DNA of 33,418 nt from a virus. Taxonomy: Duplodnaviria > Caudoviricetes. The notes beneath the pieces are model-generated. The model did no database searches. It was not told the origin of the DNA and worked only from the letters and a program-made list of their open reading frames with translations. The stretch covers positions 1 to 33,418 of IMG/VR virus record IMGVR_UViG_3300011339_000572. One strand, written 5' to 3'. Position numbers and translations under genes: made by a program. This document shows positions 1 to 25,294 of the stretch, one piece after another; position 1 is the stretch's first letter, and the number at the start of each line of letters is the position of its first letter.

Positions 1-128
1 GGAGACAGAGCCTGGGAGATGATGGGTCAGGGGCCACTCGGCAGAGAGCATATCTTTGTGCTGACTCCGGGTCTGACGTTCCACACGCTGCAAGTTTACG
101 GCAGAGGGATGGCGGCAAATGTGCCGGT
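1..128. repeat. Terminal direct repeat / circular overlap, left copy
   Basis: 1-128 matches 33291-33418 with 8 substitutions (positions 7, 16, 32, 36, 37, 72, 79, 128). The reading frame is continuous across the junction. Confidence 0.95.
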
Positions 129-222
129 GTATCGTCAGGGGTGGGGCTATCTTCTTCGGCCATACTTCGGAGGGAATCAGAAGGCACCGCACGACATTGA
201 GATAAAGATGAAAGAACTATGA
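1..222 (+). CDS. 3' part of a 155-aa hypothetical protein spanning the circular junction (starts at 33045)
   Basis: In frame with the ORF starting at 33045. Ends ...GYLLRPYFGGNQKAPHDIEIKMKEL, with an ATGA overlap onto the next gene at 219. Confidence 0.85.
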   Translation, partial: GDRAWEMMGQGPLGREHIFVLTPGLTFHTLQVYGRGMAANVPVYRQGWGYLLRPYFGGNQKAPHDIEIKMKEL

Positions 223-554
223 CACCCGGCAACTACACCATACGAGCATACCGAGGCGATACGCTTCAGCTCACGTTCACCTTGACCGATGGCAGCAACT
301 TGCCCATCGACTTGTCAACGGCCACAATGCTGATGCAAGTGCGTACCCATCCGGACGGTGACCTGAAGATGACATTTTCCGAAGGTGATGGCCTGACGGT
401 AGGCGGAACGAACAACAACGTGGTCACGGTCAGCAAAGTGGTCGGTCTGGATGGCTGCGCTTATCAATACGACCTCCAGGCTACCTTTGCCACTGGTGTG
501 GTGGTGACTTATGTGCGCGGGGCTTTTGTAGTAACTGAAGACATAACGACATGA
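219..554 (+). CDS. Putative virion/tail accessory protein, Ig-like (BppU-N/LtfC-like)
   Basis: Beta-rich pattern RGDT...PIDLS...MQVR...YQYDLQ...G.FVV..DIT, typical of small phage tail-associated Ig-like proteins. ATGA-coupled at both ends. Confidence 0.65.
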   Translation: MTPGNYTIRAYRGDTLQLTFTLTDGSNLPIDLSTATMLMQVRTHPDGDLKMTFSEGDGLTVGGTNNNVVTVSKVVGLDGCAYQYDLQATFATGVVVTYVRGAFVVTEDITT

Positions 555-1060
555 GTGACGTAAATGTAACGGTGACCGGCACCTCAATCGGTGTACAAGT
601 AGGCCCGCAGTCATACTATTTGTCTGCATATTCGACCCAAGATCAAACCAATGCCGGCGCGACATCGGTCAACAAGATGACCTACAACACGACTGACTTC
701 AGCAATGGGGTCAGCATCGTCAGCGATTCGCGCATCACGATCGCCAATGCCGGCATCTACAACATCGAGTTCTCCGCTCAACTCTCAAAGGGTGACAGCG
801 GGGACGATACCATTCAGATATGGCTCTGCAAGAACGGCAGCAACATGGCCAACAGCAACACCGAGGTGACGCTGATTGGCAACAACGGCAAGCACCTTGC
901 TTCGTGGAACTGGTTTGTGAATGCTGCTGCCGGTGATTACTACGAAATTTGTTGGCACTCTTCTGACACCGCGGTGACCATAGACTACCAGGCTGCTGCC
1001 ACGACACCCACACGACCCGCAATTCCATCCGTAATTTTAACCGTCAATAAAATAGGCTGA
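551..1060 (+). CDS. Putative tail-associated protein with C1q/TNF-like beta-sandwich
   Basis: RITIANAGIYNIEFSAQL and AGDYYEICW resemble C1q/BclA-type heads. Lies in the tail module. Confidence 0.6.
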   Translation: MSDVNVTVTGTSIGVQVGPQSYYLSAYSTQDQTNAGATSVNKMTYNTTDFSNGVSIVSDSRITIANAGIYNIEFSAQLSKGDSGDDTIQIWLCKNGSNMANSNTEVTLIGNNGKHLASWNWFVNAAAGDYYEICWHSSDTAVTIDYQAAATTPTRPAIPSVILTVNKIG

Positions 1061-1266
1061 TGAGCTTTGATATGATAGTATGGGCAGTGGGGTCGATTGC
1101 GTCAGTCTTCGGCATCTATATGCGCATGGAGATGAAGTTGAAGGAACTTGACCTTCGCGTCAAGTCGCTTGAGAAGACCGATCAGAAGATGAACGACAAG
1201 CTCGACCGGATCATGGAGATTGTCGGTGAGATTCGCTTGGAATTAAAAGACAAAGCAGATCGTTAA
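1060..1266 (+). CDS. Small membrane protein, N-terminal TM + coiled coil (holin/antiholin-like)
   Basis: Hydrophobic N-terminus (MIVWAVGSIASVFGIY) then a heptad-rich charged region. First gene of the lysis cluster. Confidence 0.6.
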   Translation: MSFDMIVWAVGSIASVFGIYMRMEMKLKELDLRVKSLEKTDQKMNDKLDRIMEIVGEIRLELKDKADR

Positions 1267-1282
1267 TCATAAATACACAACA

Positions 1283-1459
1283 ATGACAAAGAACTGGAAA
1301 ACAACTGCCGCAGGCGTACTGGTGGCACTGCTGGCCGCCGCAACTTACTTCGGATGGCTGACTGAAGAGCAAGGTATGAGCATCACCTCCGTGCTGACGG
1401 CACTGGGCCTTATCGCCGCGAAAGATGGCAACGTGACTGGCGGTAGCGTAAAGCAGTGA
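1283..1459 (+). CDS. Putative holin, 58 aa, 2 TM (absent from the supplied ORF track)
   Basis: Translated by hand: MTKNWKTTAAGVLVALLAAATYFGWLTEEQGMSITSVLTALGLIAAKDGNVTGGSVKQ*. Two hydrophobic helices, A/C-rich leader, fills the gap between its neighbours. Confidence 0.8.
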   Translation: MTKNWKTTAAGVLVALLAAATYFGWLTEEQGMSITSVLTALGLIAAKDGNVTGGSVKQ

Positions 1460-1460
1460 C

Positions 1461-1916
1461 ATGCGATATATCTCAATTATCGCCATTTTTGGGTTGTTTT
1501 CATGCGATACCGTTCAAAAGTCGCTTCGTAAGAAAGAGGCGATTGACGCGGTCATTGCTGACTACGTGGCCCGCAATCCTCCCAAGAGTGACACGGTGTA
1601 TCTGCCAGGGGTGGAGCGCGTCAGGTATGATACGATCGTCAATGAGAACATCTACGTGGATACAATCCGCGTCAGTGACACGGTGTACATCCGGAAGGTC
1701 AGGTACCAGGATATCGTGAAGACCATCATGAAGACCGACACCATGTACCGCGTGCTGGTGGACGATGGCGGTGCTCTGCTCCTGAAGCGGCAACTCGACC
1801 GGCAGACCGGTGAACTTGATGCCAAGAGCAGGAACGCGAAGGCCCTGCTGATCGCCGTCATCATCTTATCGGTTGCACTGATCACCGCCGTGGCTATTCG
1901 TCTTTTCTCCCGCTGA
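1461..1916 (+). CDS. Lipoprotein with C-terminal TM, unimolecular-spanin-like
   Basis: Lipobox FGLFS-C15, repeated DT(V/I/M) beta motifs, C-terminal TM ALLIAVIILSVALITAVAI. Directly follows the holin. Confidence 0.7.
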   Translation: MRYISIIAIFGLFSCDTVQKSLRKKEAIDAVIADYVARNPPKSDTVYLPGVERVRYDTIVNENIYVDTIRVSDTVYIRKVRYQDIVKTIMKTDTMYRVLVDDGGALLLKRQLDRQTGELDAKSRNAKALLIAVIILSVALITAVAIRLFSR

Positions 1917-1966
1917 TACATAGTGCTTTTGTGTGTGTGTTCGCCCGGTCATTTCTATGACTGGGC
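1917..1966 (+). ncRNA. Candidate small RNA / 3'-UTR element: CAU + GU tract + UUUCUA-loop hairpin (copy 1)
   Basis: CAT at 1919-1921, then AGTGCTTTTGTGTGTGTGTT, then stem GCCCGGTCA (1943-1951)/TGACTGGGC (1958-1966) with loop TTTCTA. Same layout at 7883-7949. Confidence 0.45.
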
Positions 1967-1990
1967 AACCTCATTTGTGGCAACCTGAAA

Positions 1991-2035
1991 AATATTTAGA
2001 AAAATAGTTTAGAAATATTTGGAAGATATTGGAAG
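1991..2035. repeat. Degenerate tandem repeat ATA(G)TT(T)RGAAR x4 overlapping the early promoter
   Basis: AATATTTAGAAA, AATAGTTTAGAAA, ATATTTGGAAG, ATATTGGAAG in tandem. Confidence 0.5.
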
Positions 2036-2050
2036 AATGGTGTAGTTTTG
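2018..2050 (+). promoter_or_regulatory. Bacteroidota housekeeping-sigma promoter (early operon)
   Basis: TTTG (2018-2021), 21 nt spacer, TAGTTTTG (2043-2050): matches the -33 TTTG / -7 TAnnTTTG consensus in an AT-rich intergenic region. Confidence 0.8.
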
Positions 2051-2083
2051 ATCAATCAAACAATCACAAATAAAACAGACGCC

Positions 2084-2233
2084 ATGAAAAAGTACACGGT
2101 TTACTGCCAGTCAGGTCGCTTCTTTGAATCGTTCACTATTGCTGCTGATAATTACGAGGATGCCATTGCCATCGGCCGCCGTCAGTGCCGTCTTGAAGGC
2201 ATCCGCTTCCGCTCCGTTCGTCTCGCAAAGTAG
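2084..2233 (+). CDS. Hypothetical early protein, 49 aa
   Basis: ATG at 2084 after an A-rich leader. The track's TTG start at 2048 lies inside the promoter. Confidence 0.7.
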   Translation: MKKYTVYCQSGRFFESFTIAADNYEDAIAIGRRQCRLEGIRFRSVRLAK

Positions 2234-2255
2234 TCACCAATAAACACACACACAT

Positions 2256-2573
2256 ATGCACAGAGTAATCGCACGCACACGTTCGGCAGAGGTGCCGGAA
2301 GTTTTTGCTAAGAATTTTGTTCCGGATGGCATCCGGCAGGAAGCAGGCAAGTACATCATGTACTACCAGGAGTTCGAGACCGAATCAGAAGCCCGCTGCC
2401 TCATTATGCGCTCCATCATGAATCTCCACTGGTGGAAGGCTGATGAGATGAGGATGAAGATCATCGACTTCCTTTACCGAGACTATTATTGCACGGACAA
2501 CGTTTTCGTCACCTACGATGATACAGATCGCACTAAAACAATCAAAAATGCAGCTGAAGAAAGAAATCATTGA
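2256..2573 (+). CDS. Hypothetical protein
   Basis: 105-aa ORF preceded by a CA-repeat leader, in operon arrangement. Confidence 0.75.
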   Translation: MHRVIARTRSAEVPEVFAKNFVPDGIRQEAGKYIMYYQEFETESEARCLIMRSIMNLHWWKADEMRMKIIDFLYRDYYCTDNVFVTYDDTDRTKTIKNAAEERNH

Positions 2574-2766
2574 TGAATGGAACGTCCTTCGCGAGCCGGG
2601 GGATGTCAGGAAAATTGCCGAACTGGCAAAATGCTCAAAACAACTGATCTATCACACGTTCTACACCGGAAAATGTCGGGAGGAGCTATTCAACATCATC
2701 AGCCAGTTCTACATCGACCGCGCAAAGAATCTCCAATACATTCACTCTAAAATCAAATCGTTATGA
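2548..2766 (+). CDS. Small helix-turn-helix DNA-binding protein
   Basis: DVRKIAELAKCSKQLIYHTFYTG is HTH-like. Start moved to ATG 2548. Confidence 0.6.
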   Translation: MQLKKEIIDEWNVLREPGDVRKIAELAKCSKQLIYHTFYTGKCREELFNIISQFYIDRAKNLQYIHSKIKSL

Positions 2767-3074
2767 TAACCGTGATTGCTGCCACATTTGCCCTGCTCAT
2801 GCTCATCTTCGTCACTTACGCCGCCATCGAGTACCGCCGCGAGTACAAGGCCCGCATGGATGCCTTCACGCTTGAGGATGAGTTCGTGGCTGATTACCTC
2901 AACTGCCAGGATATCCTGAAGTGCGCCACCTACAAGGATGGGCAGAAGATCATCAAGGCATTCAATGACCGATGGAGCGGCATCATGACCCGTGACCGTA
3001 TTGACTACTTCGTCAAGACCATGACCGAAAGCCTTGAATATCGCATTATTTATAATCAGTTCTCTATCAATTAA
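2763..3074 (+). CDS. Membrane-anchored hypothetical protein
   Basis: N-terminal TM (ITVIAATFALLMLIFVTYAAI). ATGA overlap with the upstream gene. Confidence 0.75.
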   Translation: MITVIAATFALLMLIFVTYAAIEYRREYKARMDAFTLEDEFVADYLNCQDILKCATYKDGQKIIKAFNDRWSGIMTRDRIDYFVKTMTESLEYRIIYNQFSIN

Positions 3075-3094
3075 CGCCAATAAAATTAAAACAC

Positions 3095-3679
3095 ATGGCA
3101 CTTGGAAATTCAAACACAGCAATTTACTTGTCCGTATCTGACGGCAAGATTGTGCGCCGGTTCAAGGAACCGACCGCGCAAAGCAAGGCACGCACAAACA
3201 AAATGGGCAACACCGTGCATGAGGAGTCTTATGACTACGTTGAGGGCATGATCACCGGCATCACGGTCAGGGACTCCGATTACGGCAAGTTCTGGTGCGT
3301 CAACATTCAGGACGGCGCGGATGCTTACATCCTTCAGTTCCAGTACAGCGGAGGCAATGCCAACAGCTTTCTCAAGTCCATCCCGAACGCTGACCTCCGC
3401 AAGCCCATCCGCATCCGGCCGGCGGTTGAGATTGACGGCGATAAGAAGCGGAGCAAGCTGTTCCTCGTTCAAGATGACAAGGCCCTGCGCTGGTTCTGGA
3501 CGAAGGAGAATCCCGGTCAGATGCCGAACCTGAAGAAGATAAAGATTAAGGGCGTGGAGCAGTGGGATGACTCCGACATGATGGAGTACCTTGAATCCTA
3601 TGTGAAGGAGCACATCACGCCCAAGCTCGGCGGGGGTGACATTACAAATGCCCAGGAGGATGAGGATGTACCATTTTAA
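3095..3679 (+). CDS. Putative single-stranded DNA-binding protein
   Basis: Beta-rich body with an acidic SSB-type tail (AQEDEDVPF). Adjacent to the exonuclease. Confidence 0.6.
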   Translation: MALGNSNTAIYLSVSDGKIVRRFKEPTAQSKARTNKMGNTVHEESYDYVEGMITGITVRDSDYGKFWCVNIQDGADAYILQFQYSGGNANSFLKSIPNADLRKPIRIRPAVEIDGDKKRSKLFLVQDDKALRWFWTKENPGQMPNLKKIKIKGVEQWDDSDMMEYLESYVKEHITPKLGGGDITNAQEDEDVPF

Positions 3680-3704
3680 GTAAACTAATCAACACACACA
3701 CACA

Positions 3705-4469
3705 ATGAGCAAGTTTATCATTGACATGCAGGCCAAGCAACTGACGATGCTTGATGCCCGCTTTTACTACGCGGAGGGGAACTTTTACCCCTCCGTCACC
3801 ACCATTCTTGAAGCATACCCGAAGGATGCCGCCTATTTTAAGTGGATCAAAGAGGTCGGCACTGACGCTGATGTCATCAGAGACGAAGCCGGCCGGAGGG
3901 GGTCGGTAGTGCATGAGCTGACGGAGCGATATGACAATGGGGAAGAGGTCAGCCTGCTGAACATGGACGGGAACCTTGCGTTCAAGATGAGCGAATGGGC
4001 GATGTTTGAGAGGTACGTTGACTTTGTCACAAGGTTCAAGCCTGACTACTTTATGAATGAGCAGAACTTTGTCAGTCCTGCGCTGGGCTTCGCCGGCACC
4101 ATCGACCGCTTGGCTTGGCTTGATGGCAAGCTGACGCTCATCGACATCAAGACATCCAACAACATCCATGACAGCTATTGGCTTCAGCTCGCCGCTTACT
4201 CTGCACTGGTGCACGTCCTGACATCCTACAAGGTCGATCAGGTGGCCATCCTGCACTTGAACGCCAAGACCCGTACGCTGGGCACAAAGGGAGCCGTGCA
4301 GGGCATCGGATGGCAACTGCTGAAGAAGGACATTGAAGAGAGCTCCACAGACTACTGGCTGTTCAAGGTCACAAAGCAGCTTTGGGGGGCGCAGAATAAG
4401 GATGCCAAGCCACGCCAGGTCTCTTACACATTGACGCATAAAAAGCCATCCGATGGAAGCGTTCAATGA
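3705..4469 (+). CDS. PD-(D/E)XK superfamily exonuclease (RecB/Cas4-like fold)
   Basis: YPSVTTIL, RGSVVHE, GFAGTID, IDIKTS and LQLAAY motifs. Confidence 0.9.
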   Translation: MSKFIIDMQAKQLTMLDARFYYAEGNFYPSVTTILEAYPKDAAYFKWIKEVGTDADVIRDEAGRRGSVVHELTERYDNGEEVSLLNMDGNLAFKMSEWAMFERYVDFVTRFKPDYFMNEQNFVSPALGFAGTIDRLAWLDGKLTLIDIKTSNNIHDSYWLQLAAYSALVHVLTSYKVDQVAILHLNAKTRTLGTKGAVQGIGWQLLKKDIEESSTDYWLFKVTKQLWGAQNKDAKPRQVSYTLTHKKPSDGSVQ

Positions 4470-4842
4470 CCTCACATGCCCGAAATGCGTGTATCAGGGG
4501 CAACCGTTCATCACGTTCCATCTCAAGTCAGGCAAGATCGCCATCAATGGCGTGGCCGTTAAGATGATGGGCATCAAGGCCGGTGACATGCTTGAGTTCT
4601 ACCGCAAGGAGATAGATGGGTCGATGGAGTGGTATGTATCTCCGGTCACTGCCGGCGGCTTCCTGCTATCAAAGCACTCCGGCAGCAGGACGCTGGTCTT
4701 CACACGCAAGGAACTCATCCTCTCCATCTATAACAGCTTATTTTATGAAGGCGCGCGGGGAAGGGCTTATGTGCTTCGAAAGCGCAGGGTGGAAGATAAA
4801 TGGGTGTATAAATTGGACACATCAGAATTGAAAAATAAGTAA
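4453..4842 (+). CDS. Hypothetical protein, paralog of 5105-5491
   Basis: Aligns by eye with the 5105 protein (P.I...KSG...N..A...G...F...W...GF.L). Confidence 0.75.
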   Translation: MEAFNDLTCPKCVYQGQPFITFHLKSGKIAINGVAVKMMGIKAGDMLEFYRKEIDGSMEWYVSPVTAGGFLLSKHSGSRTLVFTRKELILSIYNSLFYEGARGRAYVLRKRRVEDKWVYKLDTSELKNK

Positions 4843-4845
4843 CAC

Positions 4846-5094
4846 ATGGCACAACAAACGGCAGTTGAATGGTTGATTGAACAAATATCAGAAAAGCAAC
4901 CAAATGGGTTTTACGTCATTGATACATTGGAAGATGTTAAAAGAGTATTTGAGCAAGCCAAACAAATGGAGAAGGAGCAGATAATGAAAAGTTTTGAATC
5001 ATCAAGAATACCTTACAAATATGATGCAAACCTGACATTAAATGGGTTTGAGGATGCAGAACAATACTACAACGAAACATTCGGTAAACAATAA
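4846..5094 (+). CDS. Phage hypothetical protein (QTAVEWL...AKQMEKEQI...AEQYYNETF type)
   Basis: Motif I recall as recurrent in Bacteroidota phage proteins. Visibly AT-richer than its flanks. Confidence 0.8.
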   Translation: MAQQTAVEWLIEQISEKQPNGFYVIDTLEDVKRVFEQAKQMEKEQIMKSFESSRIPYKYDANLTLNGFEDAEQYYNETFGKQ

Positions 5095-5104
5095 CACACA
5101 CACA

Positions 5105-5491
5105 ATGAAATTCAAGATCTACGACACAACAAATGTCAAGTCAGGAGTAAGAAGCTCGAAGCCCATGATTCGGATTGCACGCAAGAGCGGCACGGTAAAT
5201 TTCAACAAGGGTGCTGCTGCGCACTTCTCATTGGTCGAAGGCATGCGGGTTAGGTTCCTGCAGTCAGAGCAAGAGCCAGGGGATTGGTTTATCCAGTTCG
5301 GGCACAAGGATGGCTTTGCTTTGCGTCAGTCATCTGATAAGAGCAACTTTATCTTCAACTCTTCCGCAATGGTGGCAGAGATCATGAAGTCGGTTGAATG
5401 CTTTGATAAAGGGATGAACCTTGGCATCGGGGAGACCGTCACATACGGAAAGATTGAAGCAACAGCACTCATCACACTGAAAAACAAGTAA
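5105..5491 (+). CDS. Hypothetical protein, paralog of 4453-4842
   Basis: ATG 5105 directly follows AACACACACACA. Similar to the 4453 protein. Confidence 0.8.
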   Translation: MKFKIYDTTNVKSGVRSSKPMIRIARKSGTVNFNKGAAAHFSLVEGMRVRFLQSEQEPGDWFIQFGHKDGFALRQSSDKSNFIFNSSAMVAEIMKSVECFDKGMNLGIGETVTYGKIEATALITLKNK

Positions 5492-5492
5492 C

Positions 5493-5963
5493 ATGACACA
5501 AGAGCAACTTGACCAGATCGAAGCATGGCGCGAGAGCCTTGACGAGAAGCAAAATGATGAGCACATTGTGAATGCAATGTGGCTTGCGGAGGAAATGTGG
5601 GAGCGGCATCATAGCATTGTGAAGTTCGGCAACGATCACCGTGACTTCGGCACGTACATGATGGCATTTAGCATGGCACTTATGGAATCCATCTGGATGC
5701 CGCACGATATCATCAAAGCGATCACGGCTGATCTGGATGATCTGGACACAATGCCGGAAGAGTTTATCTGCATCCATAGGGAGTCACGCGGTGACTCTAT
5801 GGTACGCATGTCATACATGGGCACGACTGACCAGGATCATGACTATGAGAAGCGTTCGACATTGAAGATATGCGACACGAAGACAGAAGCCGAAGCACTC
5901 ACCGCCATCCTCAACCACGCAAACAAAGCCGGCCATGATGCAGTTACGAGGCTATCAGCTTGA
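5493..5963 (+). CDS. Hypothetical protein
   Basis: 156-aa ORF tightly packed between neighbours. Confidence 0.75.
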   Translation: MTQEQLDQIEAWRESLDEKQNDEHIVNAMWLAEEMWERHHSIVKFGNDHRDFGTYMMAFSMALMESIWMPHDIIKAITADLDDLDTMPEEFICIHRESRGDSMVRMSYMGTTDQDHDYEKRSTLKICDTKTEAEALTAILNHANKAGHDAVTRLSA

Positions 5964-7203
5964 CATTATCGAGAGGGGCACAGAGGTGCTCCTCTCTCAT
6001 TCCATCCTCTACCTTGCGATGGAGGTGCGGACGGGCAAGACCTTGACCTCGCTGAATATCGCAGAGAAAGCAGGAGCAACCTCGGTGCTGTTCGTGACAA
6101 AGAAGAAGGCGATGAGCAGTATCGAGAAGGACTACGAGAGTCGGAAGTTCACCTTTGAGCTTGACCTTGTCAATTATGAGGCACTGCACAAGTTGACGGC
6201 CGATGACATCGAGAGCTATGACCTTGTCATTTGTGATGAGGCTCACTGCCTTGGAGCGTTTCCGAAGCCATCCATCCGGACGCAGCAGCTCAAGCAGATA
6301 GTCGGCACCAAGCTGCTGATCCTGCTCTCCGGCACTCCCACACCAGAGTCGCACAGCCAGATGTACATGCAGATGTACATCTCCGAGCATTCGCCTTGGA
6401 AGCACTACCGCAACTTCTACGCATGGGCGAAGGACTATGTCACCGTAAAAAAGAAATATGTGTACAACCGGGAGTTGAATGACTACTCCAATGCCGATCG
6501 GGAGCGCATTGAGCGCGACATGAAGCATCTCATGATCTCGTTCACGCAGGAAGAGGCAGGCTTCGTCCAGAGCATTGAAGAGGTCAGGATGGAGGTAAAG
6601 ATGAAGGATGCCACCTATGACGCAATAAGAAGGATTTTACGCGACAATCTATTGAAGACAAGTCAAGGCATGGTCATCGCTGATACTGCCGCTAAATTGC
6701 AGCAGAAAGCGCATCAGATGTATAGTGGCACGGTCATCATTGATGAGGCTGATGACCTGACCGATAGTGAGACAAAAGCGCAAGTCTTCGATGTCACAAA
6801 AGCGGAGTTCATTCGTGACAACTTCAAAGGCCAGAAGATCGCCATCTACTACAAGTTCAAAGCCGAGGAGCACATGCTGTACCTTGTGTTTGGTGCACGC
6901 ATCACCAAGGACAGTGAAGAGTTCAATCAGTCAGGATCCGACCGCGTGTACATCTCGCAGATCCAAAGCGGCCGGGAAGGCGTGAACTTGTCATCTGCTG
7001 ACTGCATTGTTATGATGAACATTGACTTCGCTGCGGTCAGTTACTTCCAGGCAAGGGCAAGGCTTCAGAGCAAAGACCGAGAGCGGCCGGCGATGGTGTA
7101 CTGGGTGATGGCAGAAGGTGGCATTGAGCAGAAGATTTATGAGCGTGTGCTTGACAAGAAGGATTACACGCTTTGGCATTTCAAGCGAGATTTTTTGAGC
7201 TGA
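5935..7203 (+). CDS. Superfamily 2 (SNF2-like, DEAH) helicase
   Basis: Q motif LRGYQ, motif I MEVRTGKT, motif II DEAH, motif III SGT, motif V SGREGVNL, motif VI QARARLQ. Confidence 0.9.
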   Translation: MMQLRGYQLDIIERGTEVLLSHSILYLAMEVRTGKTLTSLNIAEKAGATSVLFVTKKKAMSSIEKDYESRKFTFELDLVNYEALHKLTADDIESYDLVICDEAHCLGAFPKPSIRTQQLKQIVGTKLLILLSGTPTPESHSQMYMQMYISEHSPWKHYRNFYAWAKDYVTVKKKYVYNRELNDYSNADRERIERDMKHLMISFTQEEAGFVQSIEEVRMEVKMKDATYDAIRRILRDNLLKTSQGMVIADTAAKLQQKAHQMYSGTVIIDEADDLTDSETKAQVFDVTKAEFIRDNFKGQKIAIYYKFKAEEHMLYLVFGARITKDSEEFNQSGSDRVYISQIQSGREGVNLSSADCIVMMNIDFAAVSYFQARARLQSKDRERPAMVYWVMAEGGIEQKIYERVLDKKDYTLWHFKRDFLS

Positions 7204-7239
7204 ATTTCACTCATTGTGAAATAATGTTGATAATTTCAC
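7204..7239. promoter_or_regulatory. Inverted repeat ATTTCAC-N5-GTGAAAT plus a third half-site; possible operator/promoter
   Basis: ATTTCAC 7204-7210, GTGAAAT 7216-7222, ATTTCAC 7233-7239 in an AT-rich intergenic gap. Confidence 0.4.
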
Positions 7240-7261
7240 GTTAATAGAAACAAACCACAAA

Positions 7262-7498
7262 ATGAAAAAGACAATTTTTATCCTCATGCTTACCTTCTCC
7301 CTATCCACCAACGCGCAGGCCGGTGGCATATGGGATGGCATCAAAGAAGCTGCCCGCGGAGTGGGCTGGATGTTCTACATGGAAGCCTGCAAGTTGACCT
7401 GGGCATTGTTCAGCGAGGAAGGTCTGAACATCGGCAACCTCAAGTATTATTGCACTCACCCGCAGCATGACATCCTGCACAAACCGAACAGAAAATGA
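7262..7498 (+). CDS. Small exported protein
   Basis: Sec-type signal peptide MKKTIFILMLTFSLSTNA-Q. Confidence 0.75.
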   Translation: MKKTIFILMLTFSLSTNAQAGGIWDGIKEAARGVGWMFYMEACKLTWALFSEEGLNIGNLKYYCTHPQHDILHKPNRK

Positions 7499-7557
7499 AA
7501 AGCAAAAACTGGCAGCTCGTCTGCGACTTATTCTGGTATCTGATCAAACACATCTGA
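7495..7557 (+). CDS. Candidate 20-aa microprotein MKSKNWQLVCDLFWYLIKHI
   Basis: ATGA overlap with the upstream stop. Its TGA ends 1 nt before the next ATG, filling the gap exactly. Confidence 0.5.
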   Translation: MKSKNWQLVCDLFWYLIKHI

Positions 7558-7558
7558 A

Positions 7559-7777
7559 ATGAAAAAGCACACACTTACAATCGCACTTTTAGCAACTTTG
7601 ACAATGTCATCCTGCTCATTGTTCCGGCACATTGAAGGCCCGCAGGCCGGCAAGCCGGAGAACTGGCATGACGTGCATCGCGGTGACCAGCGATTCATTG
7701 CAATCCTTGCAGGGTTCACCGTAGCGTTCATCATCGGCTTTATCGGGTCACAGACTGACCTGATGATAAAAAGATAA
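7559..7777 (+). CDS. Small lipoprotein with C-terminal TM
   Basis: Lipoprotein signal MKKHTLTIALLATLTMSS-C and C-terminal hydrophobic FIAILAGFTVAFIIGFIG. Confidence 0.75.
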   Translation: MKKHTLTIALLATLTMSSCSLFRHIEGPQAGKPENWHDVHRGDQRFIAILAGFTVAFIIGFIGSQTDLMIKR

Positions 7778-7799
7778 TTACCTCGGATGGTTTGAGGCA

Positions 7800-7882
7800 G
7801 CGGGGTTAGTTCAAGTGCCGCAATGACGGCCAAGGTAGAACGCGCCATTGGTGCAATGGGAGTTCGAGTCTCCCACTTCGCT
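7800..7882 (+). ncRNA. tRNA-like RNA 1 (no anticodon loop; hairpin inserted in D loop)
   Basis: Acceptor GCGGGGT/ACTTCGC; TA linker; D stem GTTC/GAAC with GG and inserted GCCG-CAATGA-CGGC; GCGCC-ATT-GGTGC arm; perfect T arm GGGAG-TTCGAGT-CTCCC. Confidence 0.75.
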
Positions 7883-7949
7883 CTTTGCATTGGGTTTTGG
7901 TTTGGATTAAGGACAAGATCGCCCTGCGTTTCTACGCTGGGGCTTTTAT
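7883..7949 (+). ncRNA. Candidate small RNA: CAU + GU tract + UUUCUA-loop hairpin (copy 2)
   Basis: CAT 7888-7890, TGGGTTTTGGTTTGGATTAA, hairpin GCCCTGCG-TTTCTA-CGCTGGGGC (7921-7943), then TTTT. Lies between two tRNA-like folds. Confidence 0.5.
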
Positions 7950-8036
7950 GGTCAGCTGGCTGAATGGCATCAGCTTTTGAGGGTTGCATCTCCGTTATGC
8001 GTAATGCCTTCCATGGGTTCGATTCCCGACTGACCG
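7950..8036 (+). ncRNA. tRNA-like RNA 2 (elongated anticodon arm, weak T stem)
   Basis: Acceptor GGTCAG/CTGACC; D arm GCTG-AATGGCAT-CAGC; long arm GAGGG..TGCAT-CTCCGTT-ATGCG..CCTTC; T arm GGG-TTCGATT-CCC. Confidence 0.65.
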
Positions 8037-8058
8037 CGTCACAAAAACACACACACAC

Positions 8059-8340
8059 ATGTTACAAGCACTGAAAAAAACCATGAACAACATTGAAGAC
8101 AAGGTCAACGCATTTGTCACACCTGACCCGCTGATGAGGCAGGAAGGTGGTGAGCACTATAAGGGCATGAAGATTCAACCAGTGGAGTTCGTCCATGCCA
8201 ACAACATCCCTTACCTGGAAGGGTGCGCCATCAAATACCTTTGCAGGCATCGGGCAAAGGGTGGCGTGGTGGACTTGCTGAAGGCCAAGCACTATATTGA
8301 TCTCATCATATCACTTGAGTATAAAAACCAGCAGCCATGA
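8059..8340 (+). CDS. DUF3310 family protein (T7 gp1.7-like nucleotide kinase / SaV-like)
   Basis: GGEHY...IQPVEF...EGCAIKYLCR...KGG..DLLKAKHYID signature. Confidence 0.88.
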   Translation: MLQALKKTMNNIEDKVNAFVTPDPLMRQEGGEHYKGMKIQPVEFVHANNIPYLEGCAIKYLCRHRAKGGVVDLLKAKHYIDLIISLEYKNQQP

Positions 8341-10692: not shown

Positions 10693-10700
10693 TATATTTG
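10693..10700 (+). promoter_or_regulatory. Bacteroidota -7 promoter box TATATTTG (replication operon)
   Basis: Exact TAnnTTTG immediately upstream of a structured leader. Confidence 0.65.
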
Positions 10701-10709
10701 CGATGTAAT

Positions 10710-10814
10710 CCGATGTAGCCCACGCATCGGGGTGCGCTTAATAGTCGCCACATATTGGCAGGGCGGTACTCTTCGGGTGCCGGTGGGCCCCTGCCGATAT
10801 GTGGCTTTTATTTT
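10710..10814 (+). ncRNA. Structured leader: two hairpins with loop-bulge complementarity and a U tract (attenuator-like)
   Basis: Hairpin CCGATGT-AGCCCAC-GCATCGG; 17-bp stem 10747-10763/10789-10805; 6-nt bulge GTGGGC (10783-10788) complementary to loop GCCCAC (10718-10723); TTTTATTTT follows. Confidence 0.75.
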
Positions 10815-18499: not shown

Positions 18500-20059
18500 A
18501 TGCCAGTAGAGCAATGTAGCAACGGAAAATGGCGCATCGGAGATGGTGAGTGTGTGTACACCACCGAACGAGCGGCCAACCGTGCATATCAAGCATATCT
18601 TGCCATTGAAGGTGAAAGCGCAGCAGAACACGAAGAGAAGGCAGATGTCAATCGCATCAGCTTCGACTTCGATGATACTCTTGAGTACCCAAAGCTGCAG
18701 GCAATAGCCAAGCGTTACATGGCAGAAGGCAAGACGGTGTATCTCATAACCCGCCGGCGGTCGGAAGATAGCGCGGAGGTGTATGAGGTGACCGATGAGA
18801 TTGGCATCCCACGCCGGCGTGTCATCTTCACCAATGGGCAGATGAAATGGCAGACCGTGCAGCGTCTTAACATCGGCCATCACTACGACAACAACGAAGA
18901 TGAGGTCATGCTGATCCGCGAGAACACCGATGCACGCGCCACACTCGTCAATGAGGATGAGATGGAGGACTACGAAGATTTGGAAGATGACCAAGAAGAA
19001 AATGACGATGACGAAGAGATGAAGCACATCGTCAACACCATCATGCACAAGGAAGAGACATATAACGACTATCCGGAAGCGGCCACCAACAATGCACGGC
19101 GAGCATTGAAGTGGAAGGAAGAGAATGGCAGCACATGCGGCACGCCGGTGGGGTGGACACGCGCTAATCAGCTCGCCAACCGAGAGCGCATCAGCCGCGA
19201 CACGATCGCCAGGATGGCATCATTCAAGCGACATCAGCAGAACAAGGATGTGCCGTATAGCGAAGGCTGCGGAGGGCTGATGTGGGATGCATGGGGAGGC
19301 GATGCAGGCATAAACTGGGCTATTCGTAAATTGCAGCAGATTGACGGCAAAAACAACAGCATGATTTACGGATATAAGCGCATGACGCAGGAGGTGAAGG
19401 ATGTCGATGCCAAGAAGGGCATCGTCACCGGGTACTTCTCTGCTTTCAACATAAAAGACTCCGATGGTGACATTATCGTTCCAGGAGCATTTCAGAAGTC
19501 ACTATCCGAATGGTTCCCGAAGGGACGCATCAAGCACCTCCTGAACCATGACCCGCGCCAACCGCTTGGCAAGCTGATGGAGCTGAAAGAAGACTCTTAC
19601 GGTCTGTACTACGAATCGCAGATCGGCACCCATAACCTTGGCCGCGACTTCATCAAGATGGTTGAAAGTGACCTTGTCAAAGAGCACTCGATTGGCTTCA
19701 ACGTGAAGGGCAGCCGGAAGGGCAAGGATGCTACTGAACTCTATGACGTAGTTTTGTATGAAGGAAGTTCTTTGACGAGCTGGGGGGCCAATGAGTACAC
19801 CCCGATGCTCGGACTGAAATCAATGGATGCAAGGATCGAAAGGGTCAAGAAGTTAGAGAAGTTCATCAAGCACACAAGTGCCACCGATGAAACAATCGAG
19901 CTTCTGATGCTTGAGATCAAGCAGCTGAACCAACTTATCGAGGACTTGAGTAGCCAGCCGGCAGTCGAAGAGACACCGGCAGAGCCAAAGGTTGAAACCG
20001 AAGATGTTGCGCAAAAAGCTGCCACTGCACTCGATATTTTGACATTAAAATATTTCTAA
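18500..20059 (+). CDS. Multidomain HK97-type prohead protease (HAD-like and unknown domains fused N-terminally)
   Basis: C-terminal GYFSAFNIKDSDGDII.PGAF, LLNHD, HSIGF, LYEGS..WGANE (S78 protease). N-terminal ISFDFDDTL (HAD DxDxT). Confidence 0.88.
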   Translation: MPVEQCSNGKWRIGDGECVYTTERAANRAYQAYLAIEGESAAEHEEKADVNRISFDFDDTLEYPKLQAIAKRYMAEGKTVYLITRRRSEDSAEVYEVTDEIGIPRRRVIFTNGQMKWQTVQRLNIGHHYDNNEDEVMLIRENTDARATLVNEDEMEDYEDLEDDQEENDDDEEMKHIVNTIMHKEETYNDYPEAATNNARRALKWKEENGSTCGTPVGWTRANQLANRERISRDTIARMASFKRHQQNKDVPYSEGCGGLMWDAWGGDAGINWAIRKLQQIDGKNNSMIYGYKRMTQEVKDVDAKKGIVTGYFSAFNIKDSDGDIIVPGAFQKSLSEWFPKGRIKHLLNHDPRQPLGKLMELKEDSYGLYYESQIGTHNLGRDFIKMVESDLVKEHSIGFNVKGSRKGKDATELYDVVLYEGSSLTSWGANEYTPMLGLKSMDARIERVKKLEKFIKHTSATDETIELLMLEIKQLNQLIEDLSSQPAVEETPAEPKVETEDVAQKAATALDILTLKYF

Positions 20060-20082
20060 ACAATTTTTACAATCGTAACAAA

Positions 20083-24916: not shown

Positions 24917-25294
24917 ATGAACGGATACATTCAGGCCGACATCCTTGGCCGTACCAGGGGTTTGAAGTTCGGCATGCTGGCAGTCCAGCAAATAGGCATG
25001 GAAATGCAAAAGTTAGGCAAGGTCTTCGGGGACAACTCGATAGACCTTGCCGCCGTGCCCGTTATTATCTATTGGGGTCTATTCAATAATTGTTACATCA
25101 AGAAGGAAGACCCGGACTTCACCTTTGAGGATGTCGTGGATTGGGTTGATAGCAACATCAGCAGCCCAGACATCTTTACGCCAATCTTGCAGGCATTCTA
25201 CGACTCCAAGTTCCTTCAGCCAACTCAACAAGCACCGCAGGGAGATCAAAAAAAAAGTTCGACCTCGACACGCAGGAAGGGTGGGACAAGTTAA
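24917..25294 (+). CDS. Tail assembly chaperone (G)
   Basis: Between the tube and tape measure genes, with a slippery A9 run near its 3' end. Confidence 0.85.
   Translation: MNGYIQADILGRTRGLKFGMLAVQQIGMEMQKLGKVFGDNSIDLAAVPVIIYWGLFNNCYIKKEDPDFTFEDVVDWVDSNISSPDIFTPILQAFYDSKFLQPTQQAPQGDQKKSSTSTRRKGGTS

Follow-up and report, generated by a model that had tools for sequence, protein, structure and literature searches.

Conserved seed-and-hairpin elements in an uncultured phage as candidate FopS-like antisense RNAs

A conserved class of RNA elements, in which a seed-like tract precedes a short GCCC...GGGC hairpin, is present in the uncultured phage analyzed here and in its relatives. The stretch of DNA studied (33,418 nucleotides, IMG/VR record IMGVR_UViG_3300011339_000572, hereafter the window) carries two copies, copy 1 at 1919-1966 and copy 2 at 7884-7947. 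We favor, with a probability of roughly 0.55, the reading that both are FopS-like antisense RNAs at transcript 3′ ends and that copy 1 acts on the phage's own genes with CA-rich leaders. From the sequences we infer a separate RNA, its processing, pairing in vivo, repression, timing, and the host.

Results

Genome context and likely host

The window is a nearly complete phage genome with a 127-nt repeat at both ends; terminase, portal, protease, and major head genes were found in it, and all recognized genes lie on the plus strand. The sole full match to TTTG-N21-TAnnTTTG, which we take to be the Bacteroidota promoter consensus, is at 2018-2050 (plus strand) ahead of the early genes and is kept in relatives. 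Leaders are A/C-rich and lack Shine-Dalgarno motifs, as described for Bacteroidota (PMC6847099). Given this promoter and these leaders, the host is likely a member of the Bacteroidota. Phage protein relatives pointed to no usable host taxon, and blastn of window positions 1-8000 against 50,697 phage records returned no match. Rfam at the gathering score reported nothing in the window and only tRNAs among 18 loci, Rfam scans by E-value gave only chance terminator-like matches, and ARAGORN called no tRNA in the window. Six sequencing runs, all of them available as assembled contigs, contain 6-8% of the sequence words; in the sole RNA run (X6), contigs of relatives span 1854-1946 and 7784-8037, from which strand, ends, and level are not readable. 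The contig gap after the copy 1 hairpin is no finding, because a DNA contig also ends at 1946.

Three further features of the genome were observed. A promoter-like TATATTTG at 10693 is followed by a long inverted repeat with 24-nt arms (10740-10812), possibly a structured leader, and then by the primase region. A 21-nt inverted repeat (95%) is common to 2000-2020, in the early promoter region, and 20048-20068, before the major head gene. Whole genes are gained or lost among relatives with junctions at CA-rich leaders (window 4841-5493 and 7947-8040), so that these leaders may also be recombination boundaries.

Structure and conservation of the two copies

A first-pass annotation had read the two elements as antisense copies of translation initiation regions, and the reverse complements of 1919-1941 and 7888-7910 indeed read as a leader followed by ATG. 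Each is followed by a hairpin of the form GCCC-N-TTTCTA-N-GGGC, a pattern that occurs exactly twice in the window (1943-1966 and 7921-7943) and in 0 of 100 dinucleotide shuffles. The identical TTTCTA loop that had been described holds for both window copies, but the real loop is a UUCU tetraloop closed by U-A, and it varies in relatives (GUCU and AUCU at copy 1; GUCU, UUCA, and UUCC at copy 2). CAU, proposed as a fixed part of the element, had to be given up as such: it is present in 11 of 12 copy 1 rows, which include a duplicate contig, and in three of six copy 2 rows. A simple terminator scan called neither copy, and no TAnnTTTG box precedes either one.

Copy 1 follows the last gene of the late/lysis block (1461-1916, plus strand), which encodes 151 aa with no PHROG or Pfam match above cut-off and, by eye, a lipoprotein-like N-terminus; the product is possibly spanin-like, and an orthologue with 40% identity precedes the copy 1 equivalent in L514. 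The element consists of the 26-nt 3′ UTR of this gene plus a 10-bp hairpin, about 50 nt ahead of the early promoter. Its putative seed (1919-1942, plus strand), a 5′ half CAUAGUGCUU followed by UUUGUGUGUGUGUUC, is invariant in close relatives: in an alignment of 12 rows, with one contig in twice, 22 of 22 columns (1920-1941) do not change; the corresponding figures for the flanks are 28 of 53 (coding end before the seed) and 29 of 51 (downstream). Five GT units were counted in each of 10 relatives, whereas the CA repeats of the leaders have three to seven. The hairpin (1943-1966, plus strand) is supported by covariation, with 100% of the stem cells paired in 10 distinct sequences, two pairs showing two-sided change, and a score that 0 of 500 shuffles reached. 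No U run follows the stem, and local folding is predicted to be able to mask much of the GU repeat.

Copy 2 begins at the 3′ end of a tRNA-like fold at 7799-7883 (plus strand) that has an acceptor stem, a T arm, an enlarged D arm, and a 3-nt loop replacing the anticodon loop. RNAalifold on six sequences showed compensatory changes in the acceptor, D-insert, and T stems of this fold, which escapes ARAGORN and is absent from the first-pass annotation, and similar folds were seen by eye at the same slot upstream of the DUF3310 gene in L514, L517, L519, and L522. Folds of this type have an extra D-arm hairpin and an anticodon loop that is 3 nt long in the window or otherwise non-standard; the fold may act as a scaffold for processing, or as a decoy against defenses that cut tRNAs. 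The putative copy 2 seed (7884-7920, plus strand), aligned in six sequences and kept in all of them, has the conserved core UUUGGAUUA(A)GGA, an optional CAU, and a variable 5′ part. Pattern and fold analyses place its hairpin at 7921-7947 (plus strand), with 9 bp including a bulge, a UUCU loop, and then four U. On its other side, still upstream of the DUF3310 gene, lies a second, variable tRNA-like element (7950-8035, plus strand; weak Rfam tRNA-Sec match, E=3), whose equivalents are called as tRNAs in L001 and L003, absent from L002 and L004, and repeated in some relatives. Such units look mobile, with GTCAGG...CCTGAC ends and very variable anticodon arms (window 7950-8035, L001 14036-14299, L003 13830-14191, L518 760-1070), and close relatives have zero to two copies at this slot.

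Related elements in other phages

Two IMG/VR scans yielded 116 and 92 loci, and all three unconstrained stem pairs were paired in 116 of 147 non-identical rows, where about 5% would be expected by chance. Clustering of 115 rows (one without upstream sequence was left out) gave 65, and after removal of three GC-rich ones we retained 62 non-redundant phage elements of this layout. A U-rich tail is found on the UUUCUA strand in 60 of the 62, 43 lie 12-40 nt behind a same-strand stop codon, and a few have their own TAnnTTTG promoter box. CAT is the most enriched trinucleotide (41/62, compared with 24.3 in mononucleotide shuffles, 29.7 in dinucleotide shuffles, and 180/396 control 3′ UTRs), a modest excess when set against the other terminators of the same loci (18/39, p=0.06). 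Dinucleotide shuffles yield 6.9 ± 2.3 elements with TTCAT or TCTCAT upstream, where 25 of the 62 have one; a G/U tract is present in 19 of the 62 and in 13 of 396 control 3′ UTRs. Mirrored seeds carry ATG-AAA in 13 of 42 cases (131 of 1,268 phage starts), and they do not show the bias for A at -3 (16/42 vs 0.60 in real starts).

In distant relatives the hairpin sits at the same two slots with new seeds, those at the copy 2 slot being unrelated to the seed of the window. The proposal of a family with a variable seed and a constant handle thus stands as far as the 62 elements and the swapping of seeds before a kept hairpin at syntenic slots are concerned, but the loop is also found in chromosomal terminators and similar seeds precede other loops. 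Seed and loop are not strictly coupled, because some other CAT-bearing terminators look like the same class with another loop.

Two arrangements in the family were unusual. In L010, L024, and L044 (G029), two elements lie tail to tail, one with its own TAnnTTTG box, resembling a stand-alone 60-nt RNA gene. In L011/L100, L031, L099, L154, L205, and L236, a first hairpin presents the core UUUGUUGGUUU in its loop, and the sequence of its stem changes from phage to phage.

Bacteroidota chromosomal counterparts

A strict GTDB scan returned 17 matches, none with a G/U tract. This had suggested a hairpin confined to phages, an idea abandoned once a looser pattern found true terminators in some Bacteroidota: raw matches in 47 genomes of a 351-genome sample of the phylum were not above the reversed control, but in one Bacteroidota family the hairpin loop is present in 37 of 61 genomes, compared with six with the reversed control. 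Among 30 chromosomal loci of this family the median G/T content is lower, CAT is found in 18 (13.6 in shuffles), and several have no G/U seed. Five of the 30 share the seed UUCUCAUAAGCAGUUAGUUUU, of which G448 has five copies and which resembles phage seeds in L128, L111, and L184. RF04319 matched in none of five chromosomes, and all 12 matches to chromosomal seed mirrors in five genomes were antisense copies or short frames.

Two chromosomal elements deserve mention in their own right. One, in one Bacteroidota family, is multicopy (the five copies in G448) and RNA-like, with an invariant seed and a terminator (L444, L447, L454, L458, L460, L461, L463, and L464, in G414, G447, and G448). The other, also conserved and with the core CUUAAUCAGAACC or CUAAUCAGAGCCUUAACC, precedes the same hairpin (L433, L438, L439, L448, L376, L377, and L380), in some cases with an upstream promoter-like box.

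Judging from these matches, the loop is a host-lineage feature common to the phages, and because chromosomal terminators share it, it may be a lineage-typical terminator loop and not a dedicated handle. Ordinary 3′ ends, in which the hairpin terminates transcription or blocks exonucleases and the G/U spacer mirrors A/C leaders by chance, are the rival reading that fares best, unlikely as we consider it. The terminators of the one Bacteroidota family, several without a G/U seed, and the 43 phage elements that amount to short 3′ UTRs agree with it, as does the lack of general self-targeting described below. Yet in a mere spacer one would not expect 22 unchanging nucleotides and a constant repeat number next to changing flanks and a changing stem, and neither the upstream enrichment of TTCAT/TCTCAT, nor the identical seeds of the multiple chromosomal copies (five in G448), nor the missing U run of copy 1 fits an ordinary terminator.

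The likeness of the phage seeds in L128, L111, and L184 to a host seed (L444) also bears on a somewhat less probable reading, namely, that the G/U strand is a site for a host RbpB-like single-strand RNA-binding protein that protects the mRNA end or is titrated off host FopS-like RNAs; base pairing would not be required. RbpB does bind the single-stranded 5′ part of FopS (PMC11697453), and a GUUGGUUU core lies in a hairpin loop in many family members. A protein site would be expected to present one motif, yet unrelated seeds replace one another at one slot, each fitting the starts of its own phage.

Predicted targets in the phage's own genome

As the first-pass annotation had stated, copy 1 can pair over 12, 12, 13, and 12 nt (Watson-Crick) with the starts of genes 2256, 3705, 5105, and 8059; a further 10 nt pair at 24917. 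The predicted targets, all on the plus strand, are the CA-repeat leader and first codons of gene 2256 (2244-2262; 12-nt perfect complement, -26.2 kcal/mol, rank 1 of 48 starts), the CA-repeat leader of the PD-(D/E)XK exonuclease gene 3705 (PF12705; 3692-3711; 12-nt complement, -24.4 kcal/mol), and the CA-repeat leader of gene 5105 (5094-5107; 13-nt complement, -19.5 kcal/mol). The fourth, in the DUF3310 gene (8059-8340, PF11753), has two parts (8047-8073), the CA leader and AAGCACUG at 8066-8073 (codons 3-5), giving a predicted duplex of 12 + 8 bp (-25.3 kcal/mol). None of these four predicted duplexes pairs the copy 1 CAU with the AUG of the target gene.

The second part of the DUF3310 target is matched by the 5′ half of copy 1 (UAGUGCUU), with p=0.005 against shuffled 5′ halves for this one of 10 gene groups tested; averaged over the 10 CA-leader gene groups, the 5′ half added nothing significant (p=0.23). 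CAA GCA CTR is kept in six of six close DUF3310 genes while adjacent codons change, and the seventh relative (L510) has CTC, a 7/8 match to the 5′ half.

Gene starts for the target tests came from a simple caller. The best own-genome target at the copy 1 slot had p=0.012 in the window, 0.013 in L513, and 0.104 in L514, with the post-lysis slot of L513 assigned by gene context and not by homology; an element in a tRNA trailer of L518 had p=0.014. With 35-nt seeds, when the DUF3310 starts of the window, L514, and L518 are compared, the seed of each phage scores highest on its own, and this start ranks 2/28, 1/21, and 1/17 within the respective phage; the own-best result of L518 is lost with a 29-nt seed window. 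L513 shows an 11-nt perfect match across the AUG of an own gene. Of its three elements, two have a single clear best target each in their own phage, and the top-ranked own match of the third spans the AUG; none of the three targets is its DUF3310 gene. In a cross matrix of four phages, six of nine seeds were best on their own phage.

A size-corrected self-target test over 49 elements from 34 records gave p=0.02-0.03, and without the window, L513, L514, and L518 the remaining 40 elements gave p=0.32-0.39; an earlier value of p=0.016 was discarded, because it came from counting three copies of copy 1 that are not independent. Because the family-wide signal vanishes without these four phages, self-targeting is supported in the window's lineage only. 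The idea that the elements are aimed at own phage genes hence survives for copy 1 and for the corresponding elements of two distant relatives, which fit own starts best, but not as a general property. Copy 2 has no such target, as had been noted before: it pairs over at most 7 nt with any of 48 hand-listed window starts, and its own-genome test gave p=0.65.

Host and competitor mRNAs

In a sample of 636 genes (800 kb from two candidate-host genomes), family seeds fit start regions better than coding interiors (42/62, p=6e-4, mononucleotide shuffles); the enrichment of signal-peptide genes among seed matches is tiny (0.32 vs a background of 0.29). The suggestion that copy 2 acts on host mRNAs found no backing in 101 candidate-host genomes, with four matches and four in the control, and exact or wobble seed mirrors as single fixed targets were not found.

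That the elements are base-pairing RNAs directed only at host or competitor-phage mRNAs, such as envelope or receptor genes, with the own-leader match of copy 1 being incidental, strikes us as improbable. It would accommodate the ATG-AAA bias of mirrored seeds, the use of AAA as codon 2 by 69 of 183 signal-peptide-like host genes, the presence of CA leaders in other phages, and the action of FopS on SusC-type genes (PMC11697453). However, the full copy 1 mirror occurs in one of 151 candidate-host genomes (control, five), where it opens no ORF, IMG/VR contains no exact mirror other than the element, and own targets are preferred in the window's lineage.

That the minus-strand ATGs are true antisense gene starts, with the hairpin as a 5′ UTR, is very improbable and largely refuted. 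Within the window, frames of 89 codons (from 1921) and about 120 codons (from 7890) do begin at these ATGs, but the starts are not conserved, as indels beside the ATG shift the frame in relatives (17 codons in the L001-type copy) and CAT is missing in three of six copy 2 rows. Furthermore, none of the 62 elements has an upstream CAT opening at least 60 codons on the other strand, no PHROG match was obtained, and 60 of the 62 elements have their U-rich tail on the plus strand.

Discussion

Antisense RNAs at transcript 3′ ends remain our preferred reading of both copies. A G/U-rich strand with a stable hairpin at a transcript 3′ end would pair with A/C-rich mRNA starts that lack Shine-Dalgarno sequences, and pairing at these start regions would block ribosome loading. 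Being the last late gene's 3′ UTR, copy 1 would build up late in infection and would then damp translation of the CA-leader genes 2256, 3705, 5105, and 8059. The GU repeat is predicted to bind the leader and the 5′ half to bind the first codons of some targets, most clearly in the case of DUF3310. Copy 2 would be released behind its tRNA-like fold, and its targets are maybe host or competitor mRNAs.

A bolder and rather doubtful extension is that Bacteroidota phages run a modular, reprogrammable silencing kit borrowed from the host. Exchangeable seeds would be joined to a constant UUCU-loop hairpin that a host protein reads, and the RNAs would come off mRNA 3′ ends or tRNA-like scaffolds that lack an anticodon. 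One cassette would work on the phage's own CA-tagged genes as an early-to-late switch made of RNA only, and further cassettes would silence host or competitor starts.

Phage base-pairing RNAs described so far come mostly from Proteobacteria. If the antisense reading is true, a widespread FopS-like class whose seeds change with the phage's own starts would time phage genes by trans-acting RNA where ribosomes ignore Shine-Dalgarno sequences. The analysis offers concrete seed-target pairs (copy 1 with 8059 and 2256, and the L513 pairs), and it points to a multicopy chromosomal RNA family with no Rfam match to FopS.

Comparison with known systems

GcvB, which had been put forward as the model, is a ~200-nt Hfq-dependent host RNA with its own promoter and a G/U-rich seed, in enteric bacteria that use Shine-Dalgarno sequences. 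The pairing with enhancers ahead of the start is alike, and GcvB silences ACA-containing translation enhancers upstream of the start codon (PMC3879156), but the analogy is looser than that with FopS/GibS, and the window has no sequence or Rfam match to GcvB. The E. coli 3′ETS-leuZ RNA is a tRNA-trailer RNA from the 3′ side of a real tRNA and acts as an sRNA sponge. Copy 2 likewise lies 3′ of a tRNA fold, which in its case is anticodon-less, and its seed mirrors start regions. PreS, VpdS, DicF, and Esr41 are phage-encoded base-pairing regulators as well, described in Proteobacteria and several tied to Hfq with host targets (PMC12197685), and in the main text of that review the terms "Bacteroid" and "early genes" do not occur. 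No description of this element family was found in the literature searched or in Rfam; supplements of large phage structured-RNA surveys may contain the motif.

The closest known system is FopS (RF04319)/GibS of Bacteroides thetaiotaomicron, in the same phylum as the likely host. According to PMC11697453, FopS RNAs are multicopy, consist of a single-stranded 5′ seed, to which RbpB binds, and a terminator hairpin, have their own housekeeping promoter in 13 of 14 members, and include one 3′-derived member. They pair with SusC-type mRNA start regions, as compensatory mutations indicate in vitro, and lower target mRNA levels in vivo (PMC11697453). The window's copies resemble this design but do not belong to the family: RF04319 at the gathering score matched nothing in the window, and its best score in four other phage records was 16.3 bits, against a cut-off of 56 and away from the elements. 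The likeness is one of layout and of a U-rich, CAU-containing seed mirroring a start region. The 5′ end of FopS-10/GibS (GUGUUUUUCAUAG, from the primers in supplement 4 of PMC11697453) is itself a mirrored start region, and its first 13 nt are identical to the copy 2-slot seed of L513, L515, and L520; the window's own two copies share only a CAU(AG) core with the FopS R1 seed. Hairpins were confirmed in both window copies, and 60 of the 62 family members have U-rich tails, although in copy 1 the U run is missing and the seed is predicted to be able to fold back on itself. The phage elements differ from FopS in being phage-borne and mostly promoterless, in having a UUCU-type loop and seeds that are swapped between relatives, and in that their predicted targets include the phage's own genes.
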